From positions 97,499-161,498 of the forward strand of contig CAZSUU010000005.1 in NCBI GenBank assembly GCA_964610105.1: a stretch of 64,000 bases of DNA. Direction: 5' to 3'. This DNA is from an uncultured Verrucomicrobiota bacterium. GTDB lineage: Bacteria; Verrucomicrobiota; Kiritimatiellia; PWTM01. Of the stretch, positions 1-60,775 are shown in pieces. The position numbers were made by a program, and so were the translations under genes. The stretch's first letter is position 1, and every line of letters starts with the position of its first letter. The notes under the pieces were generated by a model, which worked only from the letters and a program-made list of their open reading frames with translations, was not told the origin of the DNA and searched no databases.

Positions 1-2324
1 GCGGTCAGCCCCTGAAGATCCTCGACCACGTCCGGATCGGACATCTCGCGCCGGACCTCGTCGTAGATCGGTTTGCGCGTGAGGGCGAAGAAGCCGCCGA
101 GATCGTCGCGGATGTACTTCACCTCGCGCCGGTTCTCCTCGTGCGCGCCCGCCAGCCGCTGCAGCGCCGACACCTCGGCGCGGCCCAGCCGGCCCGTCTC
201 CATGCCCACCGTCCGCGGAAGCATCTGACGCAGGCCGGCCCCCAGGTCCTCCTCGCGGCGCGCCGCCTCGCGCAGGCGGTTGATGAAGTTGCGCGCCGTG
301 AACGTATCCAGCGAGTCGCTCCCCGACTCGATCATGCCGCGCAGGGCCTCGAGGGCGGCCGCCTGCTGCTCCATCGCCTGCTGCAGATCCTCCGACCGGC
401 GGGCGGCGTTCATGGCCGCCTGGCGCATCGCCTGGGCGGCGCTGTTCATCGGCCCGCCGGCGGTCGACTGCATCCGGGCGGCGATCTCCGCCCACTCGCG
501 CAGGGTGGCGGCGGCGACGTCGCGGTTGCGCAGGCCCTCGCGGGCGAGACGGGCCAGATCCTCCGCCAGCCGCTGCACCTGCGCGGCGTTCATCCGCTCG
601 CCGCGCTCGTTCTCCGCCAGCGCCTGCTCCGCCCGCGCGGTCGCGAGGGCGTGGGTGTCCTCCGCGAGGCCGGCGTTGGCATTCAGCAGACGCTCTTCCT
701 CGCGCACCGCCTCCTCGAGCCGAGTCTGCAGATCGCGGAAACGCTCCTGCAGAAGGCGGGCGTGTTCCGCGCGGCTGAGCACGAAGATCCGGTACACGGG
801 CGATTCGGAGGGCGTCCGGTCCGGGAAGTAATCCATCGCCCGGGCGCACACATTCAGGGTGCTCCCCTCGCGAATCCCCAGCGCCACGGGGGAGAACGCC
901 GTCGAGCCCTCCAGACGGGTCCGGTCCGGGGCGCCCGCGGCCGGCGCCCGCGAGCGCACGGCGGGCGCCGCGCCGCCTTCCGCCCGCTCCTCCCACCAGT
1001 CCACCCAGAGACGCTGCACCCCGAAATCGTCCGTCGCGATGACCTTCATCGTCACGGTCTCGTCCTCCAGGATCGCGACCGAGCCGCGCAGGCCTTCGCA
1101 CTGGAGGAGGGGCGGCTCGTCCGACCGTCCCCGCAGCTCCAGCCGGAAGGGCGTGGTGCAGTGCAGGCCATGGGTGTCGGTCCAGCGGAACTCGATCGCC
1201 GCCGCCCGCGGCGGGCCGCCCGTGGCCGGCGCCGGGCCGCCCAACCACTGATCGAGCGGCAGGGCTTCCGTGCGAAAGACGGCGCCGGATACCGCCAGGG
1301 GCCGGACGGTCGCACGGCTGACCTCCGCCGCGGACACCGGCCGGTTCGCCTGCCCCTCGAAGGCGACGGTGGCGCCCTGCAGGATCTGGATCGAGGCGTT
1401 CTCGACGGGCAGCCGGTCCGGCGCGCGTCCCAGGTAGCCGGGCCACTGAACGTCGGCCGCCAGGCGCGCCAGCTCCGGCCTGTACATCGGCCTCAATGAG
1501 AGGTGTCGGGTCGCGTCGCCGGCCCGGACGTTGAGCCGCCCGGCCCGTGTCTGCCCCGGGAACCTGAACACCGCCAGGCCCCCGCGGAACACGGCGCTCA
1601 CCACCGGTTGATCCTCGATGCGCGCCTGGGCGGCCGCCGGTTTCCAGCGCGAGCGGTCCTTCAGCCGGCACGCGATCTCGAACGGTTCGCCGTGCGGCAC
1701 GACCAGCTCCGCGGGCAGCGCGTCGAGGCCGACGAAGGTGTAGCGTTCGAGCGGCGCGAGCGGCCGGAACCACCGCGAGAGCGCGTTGCGCGCCGCCTCC
1801 GGCGCGACCCACACCAGGACCGAAACCCCGCCGAGCGCGGCCGCGGCGGCGAGCGCGAGCCGGCGCGGCCGGCGGGTGTCGACCGCGCGGCGGAAATCGT
1901 AGGCGCGGGTCTCCGCCGCCACCTGCCGGATGGCCGCGCGCCGCAGGGCCGGCGAGACGACCTCCACGTCCGTCCCGTTTCCGGCCAGCTCCACCGCCCC
2001 GAGGAGCCGGTCGCCCATCCGCGGGAAGTGCCGCTGAACCAGCCGCGAGAGCGCACGGGCGTCCCGGCGCGCCCATCCCCAATGCCCCGCCCACCACAGC
2101 AGGACGGCCAGGGGAGCCGCCAGGCCCGCGACCGCGAACAGCAGACGCAGGAGGCGCGGCGTGTCCACCAGCCGGTCGAAGCCGAAGAGCAGCAGATACC
2201 CCGCGAGGAGCCCCGCCACGCCCGCGCCCGCCGCGGCGACGGTCTCCATCCCGCGCAGCCGCCCCTCGAACGTGCGCAGCTGCTGCTTCAGTTCGTCCGG
2301 AAGCTCTGGGGGCCACCTGTTCAC
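1..2324 (-). CDS. Large membrane-anchored, coiled-coil-rich protein of MoxR/BatA clusters (3' end runs off the window)
   Basis: Open frame from GTG 2324 (VNRWPPELPDELKQQLRTFEGRLRGMET...LLFGFDRLVDTP) to the window edge; N-terminal TM helices then helical Glu/Arg/Ala-rich region; last gene of the MoxR operon. Absent from the ORF track because it has no stop in the window. Confidence 0.75.
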   Translation of the reverse strand, partial: MNRWPPELPDELKQQLRTFEGRLRGMETVAAAGAGVAGLLAGYLLLFGFDRLVDTPRLLRLLFAVAGLAAPLAVLLWWAGHWGWARRDARALSRLVQRHFPRMGDRLLGAVELAGNGTDVEVVSPALRRAAIRQVAAETRAYDFRRAVDTRRPRRLALAAAAALGGVSVLVWVAPEAARNALSRWFRPLAPLERYTFVGLDALPAELVVPHGEPFEIACRLKDRSRWKPAAAQARIEDQPVVSAVFRGGLAVFRFPGQTRAGRLNVRAGDATRHLSLRPMYRPELARLAADVQWPGYLGRAPDRLPVENASIQILQGATVAFEGQANRPVSAAEVSRATVRPLAVSGAVFRTEALPLDQWLGGPAPATGGPPRAAAIEFRWTDTHGLHCTTPFRLELRGRSDEPPLLQCEGLRGSVAILEDETVTMKVIATDDFGVQRLWVDWWEERAEGGAAPAVRSRAPAAGAPDRTRLEGSTAFSPVALGIREGSTLNVCARAMDYFPDRTPSESPVYRIFVLSRAEHARLLQERFRDLQTRLEEAVREEERLLNANAGLAEDTHALATARAEQALAENERGERMNAAQVQRLAEDLARLAREGLRNRDVAAATLREWAEIAARMQSTAGGPMNSAAQAMRQAAMNAARRSEDLQQAMEQQAAALEALRGMIESGSDSLDTFTARNFINRLREAARREEDLGAGLRQMLPRTVGMETGRLGRAEVSALQRLAGAHEENRREVKYIRDDLGGFFALTRKPIYDEVRREMSDPDVVEDLQGLT

Positions 2325-2411
2325 GTATTCGCGCCATTCACCCGCGTCACCGCGCGGGCAGCGAACGGCCCATTCCCGGTTGCATTCTCCACCCTCGTTC
2401 CGAGTTGTCCA

Positions 2412-4616
2412 TCATATCTGTCCCTGCCATTTCCGCGCCACCCAGTAGGCGGCGAGCAGACCGACGACGAGCGCGGCCCACAGGGGGTGACACCAGAGGC
2501 GGAATCGCCGCTCCTCGGGCCTCCGGTCCGGCAGCACCCGCACCGCCTCGATCAGCCGGTCGAGGTCCGGCGTCCCGACGCAGAGGCCGCCGGTGATGTT
2601 CGCCACCTCGCGCAGGACCTCGGCGCGCGCGGGGCGGCCGATCTGCTCGCGCCGCGGCTGATGGACGGGGATCGCGGCCGTCACGCGCCGGCCGGTGTCG
2701 AGGCACACGGCCTCCGCCGCGTATTCGCCCCCCTCCGTCGCGACGAACGATCCTCCGCTGACGCCCCACCCGCCGGGGTCCGGGAGCAGGTCGACGATCT
2801 GCGACGCGCCGCCGGGCGTCCGCAGATGGACCTGCACGCGGGCTTGGTCGATCGGCGCCCCGCCGGCGTCGAACGCCGTGGCGTGGAGGAACACGCGATC
2901 GCCGCGGTTCGGCGCCTCGGGCACGAAGAAGAAGCGTATGCCCTCGGTGTGCGCGAGATGGCGCTGGTGGGCCATCCAGCGGACGACCTGGCCCCAGAAG
3001 CGGTAGTGGTAGAAGTCCTCCACCCCGCGGCGCCAGCGCCAGGCGCTGTCGGTGCCCATGAACAGGACCTTGCCGTTGCCCGCCGCGCGCGTAACCAGCA
3101 GGGGGATGCGCCCCGACACGTTCCGCGCGTCGGAGTGAACCGCCAGCACATCGCCGCCCGGCTTGGCGCGCACCACGGGCGCATACCAGAAGAAGCCGGG
3201 CAGGCCACGCCAGACCGACTCGTTCTCCTCGGCCGTGCCGGCCAGCAGGGTCAGGAGGTGGCCCCGGCCCCGCGTCGTCAGCGCCAGCCGCGATTCGAGC
3301 GAGAAACCGAACCCGCCCGGGGCGCTCTCGTCCAGGACCACCGGCATCAGATCGGCGAGCGGCGACGTCCGCAGGCTGGACTGGCGCCCCATCGGCCCCG
3401 GCAGGAACACCAACCCGCTCGCCTGCTGCTCGACGAGGCCCCGGATCTGCCGGACCTGCTCCTCGGTCAGGCCTTCCGGCCCCATGCCGACATCGCCGAG
3501 GAACACGACGTCGTACTTCGACAGCGCGTCGCGGGTCCCCGGGAACGCGGAGAGGTAGAACCGTCCACCGCCCGGCCCGAGGCCTGGATGCAGAAGCAGG
3601 CAGTCCACGTCCGCGCCCGGATCGCGCACCAGCGCGTTGCGCAGGTAGCGGTACTCCCAGCGGGGCGCGCTGTCGATGAGCAGCACCTTGAGCACCTCCC
3701 GGCGGACGGCGATGTGGAACGCGCGTTCGTTGTTGTCGCGCCGGATCTCTTCGGGATCCGCGGGAAGCCGGAGCTTGAGCGCCTGGTCGCCCTCGGCGGA
3801 CGGCACCCAGACCACGCTGGCCTGCGCCTGCGCCATGGGGGGGACGACGATCTCCCTGCGCGCGACCACGCCCGCCCCGCCCTCCAGCTCGACGGTGGCG
3901 CGGATCTCGCGCGGGATGCGGCTCTGGACGGTGAACGGGAGGTTGATCTGCTCGTCGACCAGCCCGTAGGCCGGCACCGCCACCGCCTGGAGTTCCAGGT
4001 CCGGCAGATGCTTCTCGCTGCCCACGGCCACGCAGAACACCGGCGCCTCGCGGGCGCGCAGGCGTGTCGCCGCGCCCACGGGCGAGAGCCCCTCGTTCCA
4101 GTCGCCGTCGGTCAGCAGCACGACGGCGCGCAGATTGCCGTGCAGGGTGACGGCCCGGTCAAGGGCCGCATTGATGTCGGTGCCCGGATCCGGCGAGGCC
4201 CCCTCCTCCTGGGGCGGGGCCGCGAAATCGGCCGTCTGGACCTCGTAGAGGGATTCGAGGGGGGTCCAGAAACGGCGGGCTTGCTGTTCCGCCAGCCACG
4301 CCTCGCGGGCAAGGACGCCGGCCACCCCCCCGGTGGCCACCGCCACGTCCTTCGTCGCCATGCTCCCCGAACGATCGGCGAGCACGACAATGCCGGGCTT
4401 CCGCTCCCGCTTCACGACGTGGACGCGCTCGGGCCGGAGGAGGGTCAGAGCGAAGGCGGCCACGGCGGCCACCCGAAGCGCGTCGGTCCACCGGATGCCG
4501 CGACGGACGCGGTCGCGACGGACCTGGCGGACGGCCAGCGTGACGGCCAGCAGCAGGGCCGCCGCCACGGCCGCCAGGCGCCACGACGCCAGATCGAATG
4601 ACCAGAAGCCTTCCAT
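2412..4616 (-). CDS. vWA domain + glutamine-amidotransferase-like (DUF1355-type) membrane protein
   Basis: vWA MIDAS-like 'LADRSGSM', 'LLTDG'; 'VLLIDSAPRWEYRYLRNAL', 'YDVVFLGD', 'TDSAWRWR'; terminal TM helices. Confidence 0.8.
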   Translation of the reverse strand: MEGFWSFDLASWRLAAVAAALLLAVTLAVRQVRRDRVRRGIRWTDALRVAAVAAFALTLLRPERVHVVKRERKPGIVVLADRSGSMATKDVAVATGGVAGVLAREAWLAEQQARRFWTPLESLYEVQTADFAAPPQEEGASPDPGTDINAALDRAVTLHGNLRAVVLLTDGDWNEGLSPVGAATRLRAREAPVFCVAVGSEKHLPDLELQAVAVPAYGLVDEQINLPFTVQSRIPREIRATVELEGGAGVVARREIVVPPMAQAQASVVWVPSAEGDQALKLRLPADPEEIRRDNNERAFHIAVRREVLKVLLIDSAPRWEYRYLRNALVRDPGADVDCLLLHPGLGPGGGRFYLSAFPGTRDALSKYDVVFLGDVGMGPEGLTEEQVRQIRGLVEQQASGLVFLPGPMGRQSSLRTSPLADLMPVVLDESAPGGFGFSLESRLALTTRGRGHLLTLLAGTAEENESVWRGLPGFFWYAPVVRAKPGGDVLAVHSDARNVSGRIPLLVTRAAGNGKVLFMGTDSAWRWRRGVEDFYHYRFWGQVVRWMAHQRHLAHTEGIRFFFVPEAPNRGDRVFLHATAFDAGGAPIDQARVQVHLRTPGGASQIVDLLPDPGGWGVSGGSFVATEGGEYAAEAVCLDTGRRVTAAIPVHQPRREQIGRPARAEVLREVANITGGLCVGTPDLDRLIEAVRVLPDRRPEERRFRLWCHPLWAALVVGLLAAYWVARKWQGQI

Positions 4617-4885
4617 CGCTCATCCGCCCGGGATCACCGACTCGCGCCCCGCCGCGCTCACGCCACACTTTGAAAAGGGTGCCGCGGCCCGCATGTCGCG
4701 TCGCGGCCGGGCAGTCCGGAATGTGCTTTGCGGAGTGCGACGATTCGTCATCGCCACACCTCCAGGTCGGTCACCCGGAAGCGCACACTCAGATGGACAC
4801 ACTTTGAAAAGTGTGACGCGGCCATATGCCGGAGACCGGCGGCGAAGAAGCCGCACCGGGTCGGCGCGGCGCGCGTGGCCGAGGA

Positions 4886-11912: not shown

Positions 11913-11982
11913 GCTTGTACCCGTTTCCGGCCCCCATCGTACCAGACTCCCCCCTCCGCTCGAACTCCCAATCGCACCTCGG

Positions 11983-12079
11983 AGTTCAGCGTTCGGTGTT
12001 CAGTGTTCAGTGTTCAGTGTTCGGTGTTCAGTGTTCAGTGTTCGGTGTTCAGTGTTCGGTGTTCAGTGTTCGGAGTTCA
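11983..12079. repeat. Tandem heptamer array (TGTTCRG) x14
   Basis: About 14 consecutive units TGTTCAG/TGTTCGG read directly from the sequence, upstream of nadB. Confidence 0.95.
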
Positions 12080-12141
12080 TCGGCGACCGAAGGAACGGGG
12101 CGGTTTGAACCACCTCGTCCTTCCTGGTCCGTCCGTGTTCC

Positions 12142-56909: not shown

Positions 56910-57310
56910 CCCGTTCTCCTTCCCGCGGCGGCGATCCGGAGCCCGGCGGCCCTGACCGTTCAACGCCTCCGCTCCAATCCGTCCGTTCCTCCGCGCGGCG
57001 GCGCCGCCTTCAGAGATGGTCCCGCCCCCTTTTACCACGGAGAAGCCCCACGGGAAACCCCGCGCATCGGCGTATCATCTCCCGCGCGACCCTGTAAGGT
57101 CACGGACGCCCGCTTGCGACTGCAGAAACCGCTTCACCCAGCGCGCGCAGGGCGGTCCATGCGTCGAATCCGGGCCGCCAGCCACGCTGCAAACGCATGC
57201 AAGTCCATTTCCTCGGACCTACTCACCCTCCCGTACCTGGTTGGCGGATAGAAGACGTGCACGTTCACAGCGACGGGGCCTCCGTAGCGTCGTGCGCGGA
57301 GGACAAAGCG

Positions 57311-57384
57311 GTTCGCGTTCACGTGCACGAGGAAACGATGTTCGTGAAGGGAGTATCGTGTACGGGTACGTGAACGGGAACGGG
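57311..57384. repeat. Inverted pair of hexamer arrays (GTTCAC/GTGAAC family) with no gene between
   Basis: Left GTTCGCGTTCACGTGCACG; right CGTGTACGGGTACGTGAACGGGAACGGG, whose reverse complement matches the left arm. Confidence 0.6.
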
Positions 57385-57432
57385 AAATCGGAAGGCCAAC
57401 AACATAGGGATTCGTTCCGACTCCGAGTCGGC

Positions 57433-57680
57433 GAGTAGAACAGCTCGATCCCGCTGTAGCTGATGCGCAGCGTCGCCGCGCCCCAGCCGAGTTCCTCCTT
57501 GCAGTACAGCCGGTACTCGCGCACGTCCTCCTCGCTGATGTCCTCCACCGTCGTGCAGGTGAAGTTCTGCAACGGCCGCATCGCCCGCAGGTACGACTGC
57601 GCACTGCGTTTCTGACGGTTCTTCCGACTCAGGTCTGCTGCAAACCGCTCGTAGATGCCGTCGTTCATCCTGCTCCTCAT
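57433..57680 (-). pseudogene. Truncated tyrosine recombinase (N-terminal SAM-like domain only; type usually paired with IS91-like transposases)
   Basis: 'ERFAADL...RSAQSYLRAMR......EDISEEDVREY..Y...E..W..ATLRISYSGIELFY'; homology stops near 57433 with no catalytic RHRY domain. Confidence 0.75.
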
Positions 57681-58977: not shown

Positions 58978-59037
58978 GCCGAACCCGCAAACGCGGCCCA
59001 CCCCGCTTCGCTCCGAGGCGGGTGCGCGGCGTTGGGC
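58978..59037 (+). other. attC site
   Basis: R'' GCCGAAC and R' GTTGGGC bracket an imperfect palindrome, 15 nt after the cassette stop. Confidence 0.75.
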
Positions 59038-59272
59038 CACTTGAAAGCGGATACCGATGTCAGAGAAGCGCAGGAGACACGGACACGCGGGCGCGGCGGA
59101 GCATGCTCTCCTGGCTCACCGCCAGCGGGTTGGCACGAAACGGGCCGGGGCGCTCTCCACGGCCCCATTCACCTCCCGGACTGCGCCGAACGGCTTCGCT
59201 GGGTTGCCTGTCCCGCCATAGCTCCTGTGCCGCGATAGCTCCGCAGGGGCGACGGCGGATGCCATCTCGCCT

Positions 59273-59459
59273 CGCCCGGTCGGCCTTCCATGGGGTTCTT
59301 GTTCATCCGCTCGCGGCTCTTGCCTAGTCTTCCTCCAGCCGGACGGTGGCCCGCCCGACCTTGACTTCGGCGGGTGCTTGCCATGATGCTCTCGCTTCAT
59401 GTTCGACTCTCGCACTGGGGACTTGAAGCCCATCAGGACTGCGGCCATGCTGGGCGCAC
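59273..59459 (-). mobile_element. Group IIC-type intron 5' fragment inserted in attC (copy A)
   Basis: Minus strand begins GTGCGCCCAGCATGG at 59459 immediately after attC bottom-strand ...GT; no domain V or RT downstream. Confidence 0.8.
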
Positions 59460-59515
59460 ACCACGGCGTGCATGGTAGGCTCGCCAGCTCGCCACCATGA
59501 CGCCGACGTTCGGTG
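59460..59515 (+). other. attC site split at R'' by intron copy A
   Basis: (A)AC-CACGGCGT-GCATGGT...ACCATG-ACGCCGAC-GTTCGGT. Confidence 0.8.
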
Positions 59516-59558
59516 AGTAGACAAGGCAGAGATGCAATAGTAGTCTATGGATATCCTC

Positions 59559-59768
59559 ATGAACACGTATACAGCAGTAACAAAACGAGATGGTGATTGG
59601 TGGATCGGCTGGATCGAGGAAGTACCGGGCGTAAACTGCCAGGAGCGGACGCGTGAAGAACTCCTTCAGAGCCTAAGGATCACCCTGAAGGAAGCTCTGG
59701 ACTTCAACCGCCACGAAGCCATCGAAGCTGCCTCTGCCGATTTCTCAGAAGAACCACTCACGGTATGA
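59559..59768 (+). CDS. hicB: HicB-family antitoxin
   Basis: 'YTAVTKRDGDWWIGWIEEVPGVNCQERTREELL.SL...LKEAL'. Confidence 0.88.
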   Translation: MNTYTAVTKRDGDWWIGWIEEVPGVNCQERTREELLQSLRITLKEALDFNRHEAIEAASADFSEEPLTV

Positions 59769-59953
59769 AGCGGCAGCAACTGCTCAAGCATCTCCGAGAG
59801 CACGGATGCGTGTTTGTGCGAGAGGGCGGCAGCCATTCATGGTGGGCAAATCCCCAGCAGAATAGGCGTTCATCAATCCCTCGCCACACCGAGATCAGGG
59901 ATCTGCTGGCAAGGAAGATCTGCAAAGATCTCGGCATCCCATTTGTGAAATAA
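59765..59953 (+). CDS. hicA: HicA-family toxin
   Basis: 'MKRQQLLKHL..HGC...REGGSHSWW.NP.....S.IPRH.EI...LARKICK.L.IP'; ATGA overlap with hicB. Confidence 0.9.
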   Translation: MKRQQLLKHLREHGCVFVREGGSHSWWANPQQNRRSSIPRHTEIRDLLARKICKDLGIPFVK

Positions 59954-59954
59954 T

Positions 59955-60046
59955 CACCAACCATCGCCTCCAGTTCACGGCTTGTCCGGCACGCCTTTTG
60001 CGGAGCAGAAGTCGCGTTAGCCTGTGCCGATGCTGAGGCGTGACGT
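59955..60046 (+). other. attC site (R' GT|TGGCG split by mini-intron)
   Basis: R'' CACCAAC, arms CATCGCCTC...GAGGCGTGAC, R' GT at 60045-60046 completed by TGGCG at 60286-60290. Confidence 0.8.
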
Positions 60047-60285
60047 GTGTGCCGGGCATGACTGATGACTGAGAGGGGAGAGACCTCCGTCCAGGTAGGC
60101 GCGCAGCCGAAGAACTAGTGGAAACACAAGGGCTGCCGTCGCGAGGCGGGGTCTGAAGGAAGTGCAACCCCAAACGGGGGCTTCCCAAGTTGCAGGAGGT
60201 TTGCCAACGGAATCGCCGGGTACGTGATCCGTATGCCCGGGTGGTGTGGAAGAAGCGGCCTCGCGAGGCGCCCCCTTATCCCGAT
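60047..60285 (+). mobile_element. ORF-less 239-nt group IIC-type mini-intron
   Basis: 5' GTGTGCCGGGCATG; domain V GAATCGCCGGGTACGTGATCCGTATGCCCGGGTGGTG (60210-60246) with CGC triad; domain VI ending CCTTATCCCGAT. Confidence 0.85.
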
Positions 60286-60349
60286 TGGCGGAGAAGAAAA
60301 GAGAACTGCGGTCGATCAGGGTCGGGGTCGGGGTCGAAAAGGAGTCGGC

Positions 60350-60510
60350 ATGGCCTTCGGACACGAGAAGCTGGACGTCTATCGCGCCGCCATCGAGTAC
60401 GTCGGCTGGGCGTATCGGTTCTGCGAGGCGTTGGCCACAGAGGAAAACGAGAAGGCCAAGGCCCTGCCGGACCGGATCGTGGCGATGCTTACAGAGCTCG
60501 GGCACCGGCT
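60350..60510 (+). pseudogene. Four-helix-bundle gene cassette with internal deletion, 3' end fused to intron fragment
   Basis: 'MAFGHEKLDVYRAAIEYVGWAYRFCEAL|ATEENEKAKALPDRIVAMLTELG'; preceded by GGGGTC hexamers and RBS AAGGAG. Confidence 0.78.
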
Positions 60511-60530
60511 GTCGCAGGCGCGATTTCCTC

Positions 60531-60717
60531 CGCCCGGTCGGCCTTCTATGGGGTTTTTGTTCATCCGCTCGCGGCTCTTGCCGAGTCTTCCTCCAGCCGG
60601 ACGGTTGCCCGCCCGACCTTGACTTCGGCGGGTGCTTGCCATGATGCTCTCGCTTCATGTTCGACTCTCGCACTGGGGACTTGAACCCCATCAGGACTGC
60701 GCCCATGCGGGGCGCAG
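60531..60717 (-). mobile_element. Group IIC-type intron 5' fragment inserted in attC (copy B, about 96% identical to copy A)
   Basis: 8 mismatches over 187 nt vs 59273-59459; starts CTGCG (G1 mutated) after bottom-strand TTGT. Confidence 0.8.
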
Positions 60718-60775
60718 ACAACAGCTCGGACGTTATCGTCGCGAAGCGACCCGAAACGTCAAGGTGACGTTCGGC
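60718..60775 (+). other. attC site split at R'' by intron copy B
   Basis: (A)ACAACAGCTC-GGACGTT...AAACGTC-AAGGTGAC-GTTCGGC. Confidence 0.75.

Follow-up and report, generated by a model that had tools for sequence, protein, structure and literature searches.

A 239-nt group IIC intron derivative that splits the attC site of a hicBA cassette is probably the dead remnant of a full-length intron

The 64-kb stretch of DNA that we analysed (hereafter the window) contains, at 60047-60285 of its plus strand, a 239-nt derivative of a group IIC intron that begins with GTGTGCCGGGCATG and finishes with CCCTTATCCCGAT. Its letters run GUGUGCCGGGCAUG ... CCCUUAUCCCGAU, between the flanks ...GTGACGT on the 5' side and TGGCGGAG on the 3' side. 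Upstream of this mini-intron and on the same strand lies a toxin-antitoxin cassette (59547-59953) made of a hicB-like gene (59547-59768) and of hicA (59765-59953). The hicA product matches the Pfam family HicA_toxin with an E-value of 2.3e-12, and the hicB-like assignment is putative, made from position and sequence look with no family match.

Exact excision of the 239 nt gives GTTGGCG (GT|TGGCG), that is the R' core of the attC following the hicBA cassette. The matching R'' (CACCAAC, 59955-59961) lies immediately 3' of the hicA stop codon and is complementary, save for one mismatch, to the rejoined GTTGGCG; the L boxes are complementary too. Given this pairing, we conclude that the mini-intron splits the R' core of the hicBA attC, and that its precise removal restores R', as the initial annotation had proposed. 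By sequence and fold, the left part of the attC (59955-60046, plus strand) extends from R'' to the GT of R' and ends with the four bases ACGT, an IBS1-type 5' exon, while the right part of the split core (TGGCG, 60286-60290, plus strand) starts with a T that is the IBS3-type 3' exon base. Once rejoined, the 105-nt attC folds into an imperfect hairpin with R''/R' pairing, with a z of -1.3 that is weak when taken alone. The mini-intron is therefore found at the top strand of attC, at ACGT/T and co-oriented with hicBA. A DNA stem-loop and a short IBS1 immediately precede the insertion, the attC hairpin ending in ...GACGT|, a 5' exon class also seen in relatives.

The surrounding array looks like a degraded chromosomal integron. 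Its plus-strand cassette-like units comprise a 373-aa ORF, an attC-like hairpin (~58983-59047), the hicB-like/hicA pair and small ORFs. On the minus strand, divergent from the cassettes, we found a tyrosine recombinase remnant (57219-57680) with only the N-terminal SAM-like domain of an integron-integrase-like protein (Pfam Phage_int_SAM_4, E 3.4e-8, residues 10-85) and a weak NCBIfam match to recombinase/integron integrase; the space left before the S49 peptidase gene is insufficient for a full integrase. Also on the minus strand are two group-II-like 5' fragments, A (~59143-59461; 35.4 bits with the Rfam model RF02001, under high composition bias) and B (~60517-60719; RF02001 25.4 bits), the latter starting with GUCUG, not GUGUG. 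These fragments are 92% identical to each other over 212 nt, and each is adjacent to what is left of an attC (R' GTTCGGT and GTTCGGC). A search of the window with a covariance model revealed no DV-DVI for either of them, and fragment A had no match among plasmids. They are of a different sequence type from the mini-intron and occupy the opposite strand, and they fit the orientation of canonical IIC-attC introns (bottom strand, opposite to the cassettes; PMC3001079, PMC7923331) better than the mini-intron does. The integrase is truncated and two other pieces of intron lie within the same 1.7 kb, signs of decay across the whole array.

Downstream of the mini-intron, a short ORF (60351-60520, plus strand; MAFGHEKLDVYRAAIEYVGW...) looks truncated and runs into fragment B. 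Diverged paralogues of this ORF continue differently in metagenomes (X5 record 14). We considered it as the remnant of a four-helix-bundle (23S rRNA IVS-type) protein and dropped this candidate, as it had no Pfam or NCBIfam match.

By using blastn on plasmids, we found two blocks that match ltrA-carrying introns of class 1 integrons, with an E-value of 3e-12 each: nt 1-128 of the mini-intron are ~75% identical to the 5' end of these introns, and nt 164-239 share 83-84% identity with their 3' end. The two halves are thus each homologous to full-length introns. Two of these plasmid introns served as references: the 1840-nt ltrA intron in the aac(6')-Ib4 attC of pPp47 (NZ_MG516912.1, locus 3001-4840; L001) and the 1838-nt ltrA intron in the aadA1 attC of pEC732_IMP14 (NZ_CP015139.1, locus 1238-3075; L002). 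In a global alignment with the former, nt 1-132 of the plasmid intron correspond to nt 1-133 of the mini-intron, and nt 1765-1840 to nt 164-239. The 5' part shows 75-80% identity to 28 relatives. Together these data indicate that the homology of 60047-60285 to group II introns is, as judged from the alignments, far beyond chance.

The first part of the mini-intron (60047-60179, plus strand) is colinear with the pPp47 intron and consists of the 5' GUGUG (60047-60051) and the first 133 nt of domain I, up to a GNRA hairpin and the UCUGAAGGAAG motif (60152-60162). It is followed by a deletion-junction segment of ~30 nt (60180-60209; internal junction GGGGGCTTCCCAAGTTGCAGGAGGTTTGCCAACGGAATCGCC), for which no above-chance match was seen in the window or among the 129 loci fetched. 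At this place the relatives carry ~1630 nt (distal DI, DII, DIII and DIV with the ORF). According to the alignment of relatives and a pair check, the 3' part comprises a linker and domain V (60210-60247, with the DV helix at 60213-60244), then domain VI and the 3' end ...CCCGAU (60248-60285, DVI proper being 60248-60281). Domain V displays the CGC triad (60214-60216), a two-base bulge (UG, 60234-60235) and an extra G in its 3' strand (within 60239-60241), and all 12 of its 12 family pairs are standard. Domain VI keeps 11 of 14 family pairs, with 3 broken, and its bulged A (60278) lies seven nt from the 3' end. Both group II boundaries, GUGUG and the ...CCCGAU that ends at 60285, are identical to those of the relatives. 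Domain IV and the ORF are absent, the 239 nt holding no ORF where relatives carry ltrA.

For DV-DVI, we built a covariance model (R1) on 26 relatives with the candidate left out. In the underlying alignment, 95.7% of the cells are paired, both-sided changes occur at 11 pairs, and the structure is well supported, as no shuffled or slid version comes close. Applied to the window, R1 scored 60210-60285 at 67.7 bits (E 4e-14), the sole significant match, the next one reaching 16 bits. Among Rfam models, RF02001 gave a partial match at 60135-60206 with 27.7 bits, under its cut-off of 32, and 23 nt stand in for 121 model positions in that alignment; the outer stems of its consensus disagree with the basal DI helices read from the sequences, and we did not use them for structure claims. 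RF00029 (DV-DVI) had no match on the candidate and is uninformative here, since it also missed the intact introns of pPp47 and pEC732_IMP14. With RF01998 (DII/J2-3/DIII), nothing was found in the mini-intron at E <= 10, for 54 bits in each of these two plasmid introns. Homology and the family covariance model therefore agree with the initial annotation on a mini group II intron with both ends, DV and DVI, sitting exactly in the attC R' core, and the 5' GUGUG, the domain V with its CGC triad and the 3' ...CCCGAU that it listed as retained are all seen. Its further statement that most of DI-DIV and the whole ORF are gone is correct for distal DI, DII-DIV and the ORF but not for DI itself, about half of which (the first 133 nt) survives.

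We then looked at the lineage from which the mini-intron derives by scanning for GTGTGYCGGGCATG followed by 80-100 nt and GGTCTGRAGGAAG, with one genome per species and exact motifs required. This intron lineage was found in at least 119 stretches from many phyla, mostly environmental MAGs (L006-L124). Among the matches listed, 55 copies have both ends and measure 587-1954 nt; ~40 of these are 1793-1954 nt long and ~15 are ORF-less or ORF-damaged copies of 587-1396 nt, with the true ORF-less relatives at 587-953 nt. Bacterial ORF-less introns are described as rare (PMC4424553), whereas their share is higher here (~15/55, among the matches listed). At 239 nt, the mini-intron is indeed far shorter than its relatives, as first noticed: among the matches listed, the 55 with both ends have at least 587 nt. 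Two arrangements of neighbouring copies were also noticed. One locus (L032, 3038-6915) carries two introns head to tail, the 3' CCCGAT of the first being directly followed by the GTGTGCC of the second, and in another (L016, about 2620-2694) an intron begins right after the DV-DVI of another intron.

The copies can be sorted by how their 5' exon ends (NCGT, CGTT, AGTC, TTAT and others), and a hairpin loop located at intron nt ~185-195 varies in concert with these classes, NCGT going with GCACGUGA, CGTT with AACG, AGTC with GACUA and TTAT with AUAA. Among the matches listed, the loop is fully complementary to the four terminal nt of the 5' exon in 53 of 87 copies, for 21 expected and a maximum of 32 in 200 shuffles. 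This co-variation identifies the loop as EBS1. It also defines sub-lineages across L001-L124, with NCGT copies at the attC top strand and those with CGTT, AGTC, TTAT or TTGTG downstream of other hairpins or terminators. The EBS1 hairpin is missing from the mini-intron, whose DI is kept only to nt 133, and falls in the deleted stretch. As for the exons, NCGT precedes the intron in 62 of 108 relatives and GACGT, the 5' exon of the mini-intron, in five further relatives (both among the matches listed), while a 3' exon T follows most relatives of the same DVI type. The mini-intron thus sits at a canonical target of its own lineage (NCGT|T), but without the hairpin that reads this target.

The introns of pPp47 and pEC732_IMP14 occupy the top strand of the attC R' at GT|TAGAT and are co-oriented with the resistance cassettes. 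The mini-intron resembles them by its 5' 14-mer, the UCUGAAGGAAG motif, DV-DVI (83-84%), the NCGT|T target within GTTRRRY and the orientation. It differs from them in that they span 1838-1840 nt and contain an entire ribozyme and an RT/maturase ORF, whereas it is devoid of intron nt ~134-1764. The placement of these two plasmid introns is unlike the bottom-strand, opposite-orientation rule stated for IIC-attC introns.

Group II ribozymes such as the Oceanobacillus iheyensis IIC intron form their catalytic triple helix from J2/3 and DV, and rely on DI for exon binding. Because of these established roles of J2/3 and DI, the parts lost from the mini-intron are likely to be essential. In the part of DI that is left, the basal DI helices are unable to close, the sole CCCGG partner for CCGGG (nt 6-10) being the 3' strand of DV itself. 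In DV, the extra G is private to the mini-intron, occurring neither in the 30 aligned relatives nor in the 45 relatives listed. In DVI, pairs 46-68 and 53-62 are broken, which are paired in 26/26 and 25/26 relatives, respectively. The DV-DVI score of 67.7 bits is close to that of the relic L126 (71.3 bits) and below the 82-103 bits that most intact copies sharing its DVI type reach; it may partly come from lineage divergence rather than decay. Finally, we counted 5 changes at positions that are invariant in 28 relatives, which is the highest number of any copy.

A longer paralogue of the mini-intron was found in four Logan metagenome runs (X1, X5, X8 and X9), on a second contig of 1873-1987 nt that matches 60044-60170 with 10 differences. 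Runs X1 to X7 stem from biogas and wastewater samples. The paralogue shares ~92% identity with the first 124 nt of the mini-intron, then runs on as normal domain I (AAAGGTGCGGGACGACGAACAGG...), and has its own, different NCGT flank. At 60077 and 60104, which are mutated in the mini-intron, the paralogue keeps the base that is invariant in the 28 relatives, a pattern that fits relaxed constraint on the mini-intron. Its depth and that of the host contig are 6.7 vs 5.9 (X1), 27.3 vs 27.4 (X5), 4.5 vs 7-8 (X8) and 5.5 vs 5.1 (X9). The paralogue is probably full-length and very likely belongs to the same genome as the mini-intron, which opens in principle the way to help in trans; being at the same depth as the host, it suggests that a maturase and a complete ribozyme may share the cell.

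The mini-intron itself behaves as a single copy. By sequence comparison and with the covariance model, we found no second copy in the 64-kb window. Its junction and 3' part were recovered at host depth in runs X1, X5 and X8 (5.9, 27.4 and 8.1), always with one set of flanks; these three runs contained neither other flanks nor an empty-site joint skipping the mini-intron. Among the sequencing runs looked up for the region, none of RNA contained it. An exact-motif scan of JGI metagenome contigs did not find its 5' 23-mer. We also searched for short copies in which no more than 86 nt would separate UCUGRAGGAAG from DV, exact motifs being needed, and obtained 5 loci. Only two (L125 and L126) are true intron relics, each broken at different points and damaged in DV or at the 5' end, and the remaining ones (L127-L129) were discarded as chance matches within coding sequence. 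Since the break points of both relics differ from that of the mini-intron, internal deletions seem to recur as accidents, and not as a propagating form. Identical short copies at other attC sites, the presence of which the initial annotation had suggested checking as a sign of mobility, were thus found neither in the window and the metagenomes nor in the JGI contigs and the short-copy scan. No empty-site allele was obtained: an exact-protein look-up with HicA returned no contig, and the oxidoreductase neighbour only gave short metagenome contigs that end before the array.

Taking these observations together, we propose that 60047-60285 is most probably the dead remnant of a full-length group IIC intron of about 1.8-1.95 kb that suffered an internal deletion. 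Introns of the parent lineage target the attC hairpin in its top strand, inserting at NCGT|T in the R' core and in the direction of the cassettes, and the exact match to this target suggests that the ancestor retrohomed into the hicBA attC. Later, ~1.6 kb would have been lost from the middle, probably through one deletion that starts within domain I and stops right before domain V, which removed the EBS1 hairpin, the rest of DI, domains II-IV, J2/3 and the reverse transcriptase/maturase gene. The remaining half of DI, DV and DVI would be unable to recognise exons or to assemble a catalytic core and, as a consequence, the remnant would neither move nor self-splice and would be accumulating private mutations. 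Its sole effect is likely passive: as long as the R' core stays split, the hicBA cassette would remain fused to the next one, in an array where the integrase is already truncated. Of the three possibilities raised in the initial annotation, this favours the third, a deletion relic, as the mini-intron is single-copy and has lost essential DI contacts, two of the three observations (the third being a lack of splicing) named beforehand as speaking against a mobile or functional element.

Some features count against a relic. The mini-intron keeps its two splice boundaries, a DV whose pairing is complete and a DVI that has its bulged A, which a random 1.6-kb deletion need not have spared; the retained parts are only mildly degraded, and the longer paralogue may provide a maturase and a complete ribozyme in the same cell. 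The preserved boundaries, DV and DVI with its branch A fit a non-autonomous element, whose 239-nt RNA would be excised or even mobilised in trans while the longer paralogue supplies the maturase and possibly the missing RNA domains. This paralogue is indeed at equal depth in X1, X5, X8 and X9, and ORF-less copies dependent on a maturase in trans are common in the family (~15/55, among the matches listed). However, a maturase is no substitute for the absent EBS1, J2/3 and DIII, and DIV, which is the main maturase binding site of group II introns, is gone. Trans-acting maturases are documented for ORF-less bacterial introns (PMC4424553), but the mini-intron is a single copy in the window and the metagenomes, it bears private mutations at invariant positions, and a second element of the same architecture was found neither among the two-ended relatives listed nor in the JGI contigs or the short-copy scan. 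We therefore consider trans excision or mobilisation improbable, and the single copy in the window, the single-copy depth, the lack of a copy in JGI contigs and of any shared architecture among the copies scanned contradict the MITE-like mobile family first envisaged.

A minimal ribozyme that self-splices from half of DI, DV and DVI alone is barely credible. What speaks for it is only the conservation of both boundaries, the CGC triad, the bulge of DV and the branch A, and the mini-intron is devoid of EBS1, J2/3 and DIII, its basal DI helices cannot close, and the other two-ended copies are all at least 587 nt long among the matches listed. When folded for minimum free energy, the 239 nt do no better than shuffles (z = 0.07), a value that is uninformative for a group II fragment and that we weighed against this ribozyme only. 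Based on the missing EBS1 hairpin and RF01998 block (J2/3-DIII), the ribozyme considered in the initial annotation is thus not plausible. We also considered a hybrid, in which deletion or recombination between introns of neighbouring attC sites would have linked the 5' portion of one copy with the 3' portion of another and eliminated the intervening DNA. The 30-nt junction that matches nothing, the 5' strand of the basal DI helix that is left with no downstream partner and the other intron fragments of the array, which reveal rearrangements at this place, are all in line with such an origin. Yet the flanks form one coherent attC, in which CACCAAC and GTTGGCG pair with one mismatch and the L boxes pair, the 5' and 3' exon bases are both as expected, and the other fragments of the array are on the opposite strand and of a different sequence type. 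A hybrid is thus unlikely.

The introns of euglenoid chloroplasts provide another point of comparison. Their group III or degenerate group II introns are present in more than 150 copies, interrupt essential genes, demonstrably splice and usually have no DV (PMC4424553). They share with the mini-intron an extreme shrinkage that keeps boundary motifs and DVI, and they are thought to depend on trans factors (PMC4424553). The mini-intron would be their bacterial counterpart if its 239-nt RNA was still removed from the cassette transcript, with the paralogue giving the maturase and the missing RNA parts in trans. We regard this as highly improbable. Unlike euglenoid introns, the mini-intron is a single bacterial copy located in a non-essential spacer, and they are a formal analogue only.

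The closest precedents of the mini-intron, taken as a deletion relic, are the truncated introns UHB.F1, H.ha.F1 and H.ha.F2 of integron arrays and CALINs, which are 5'-truncated and keep DV-DVI and part of the ORF (PMC7923331). H.ha.F2 lies in a HicA cassette, and such fragments, which are often beside toxin-antitoxin cassettes, are said to outnumber full-length copies (PMC7923331). In both cases these are non-functional leftovers of arrays, but the mini-intron keeps both ends and loses the middle. The group II intron fragments met across bacterial genomes are a similar case. Canonical IIC-attC introns (S.ma.I2 type) target the bottom strand of attC at TTGT/T, opposite to cassette transcription (PMC3001079, PMC7923331). 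The mini-intron is like them a class C type with a CGC triad, at an attC hairpin with a 4-5-nt IBS1/IBS3 target; because strand and target differ, it would not qualify as a canonical IIC-attC intron. The proteins of that lineage form a monophyletic clade, while the mini-intron has no ORF left to be placed in it. The top-strand type is mentioned as an unusual target reported in Enterobacter cloacae, in a work cited in PMC7923331. ORF-less bacterial introns, as summarised in PMC4424553 from Simon et al. 2008, keep six RNA domains and can splice. They have in common with the mini-intron the loss of the ORF, the conservation of both boundaries and genomes that also hold related full-length introns. 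However, the mini-intron is not one of them, because ORF-less introns keep all six domains, while here about half of DI is missing together with the whole of DII-DIV.

The mini-intron is in this respect another example of a group II intron remnant in a cassette array, which is an ordinary finding. As a relic, it indicates that this chromosomal array of cassettes was in the past invaded by an intron of the IIC lineage that targets the attC top strand, and that intron insertions can persist as stumps that leave the attC core split and the neighbouring cassettes frozen together. If it were spliced, it would set a precedent among bacterial group II introns, as the first to function with most of DI and the whole of DII-IV missing, with a bearing on the origin of spliceosomal introns; if it were excised in trans, it would represent a natural step toward a split, spliceosome-like arrangement. 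The by-products of the analysis are possibly more useful, namely a widespread lineage in which about a quarter of the two-ended copies are ORF-less (among the matches listed) and a clean co-variation between EBS1 and target. Elsewhere in the window, at 11965-12090, we noticed a tandem array of about 18 copies of a 7-nt unit (GTTCAGT / GTTCGGT).
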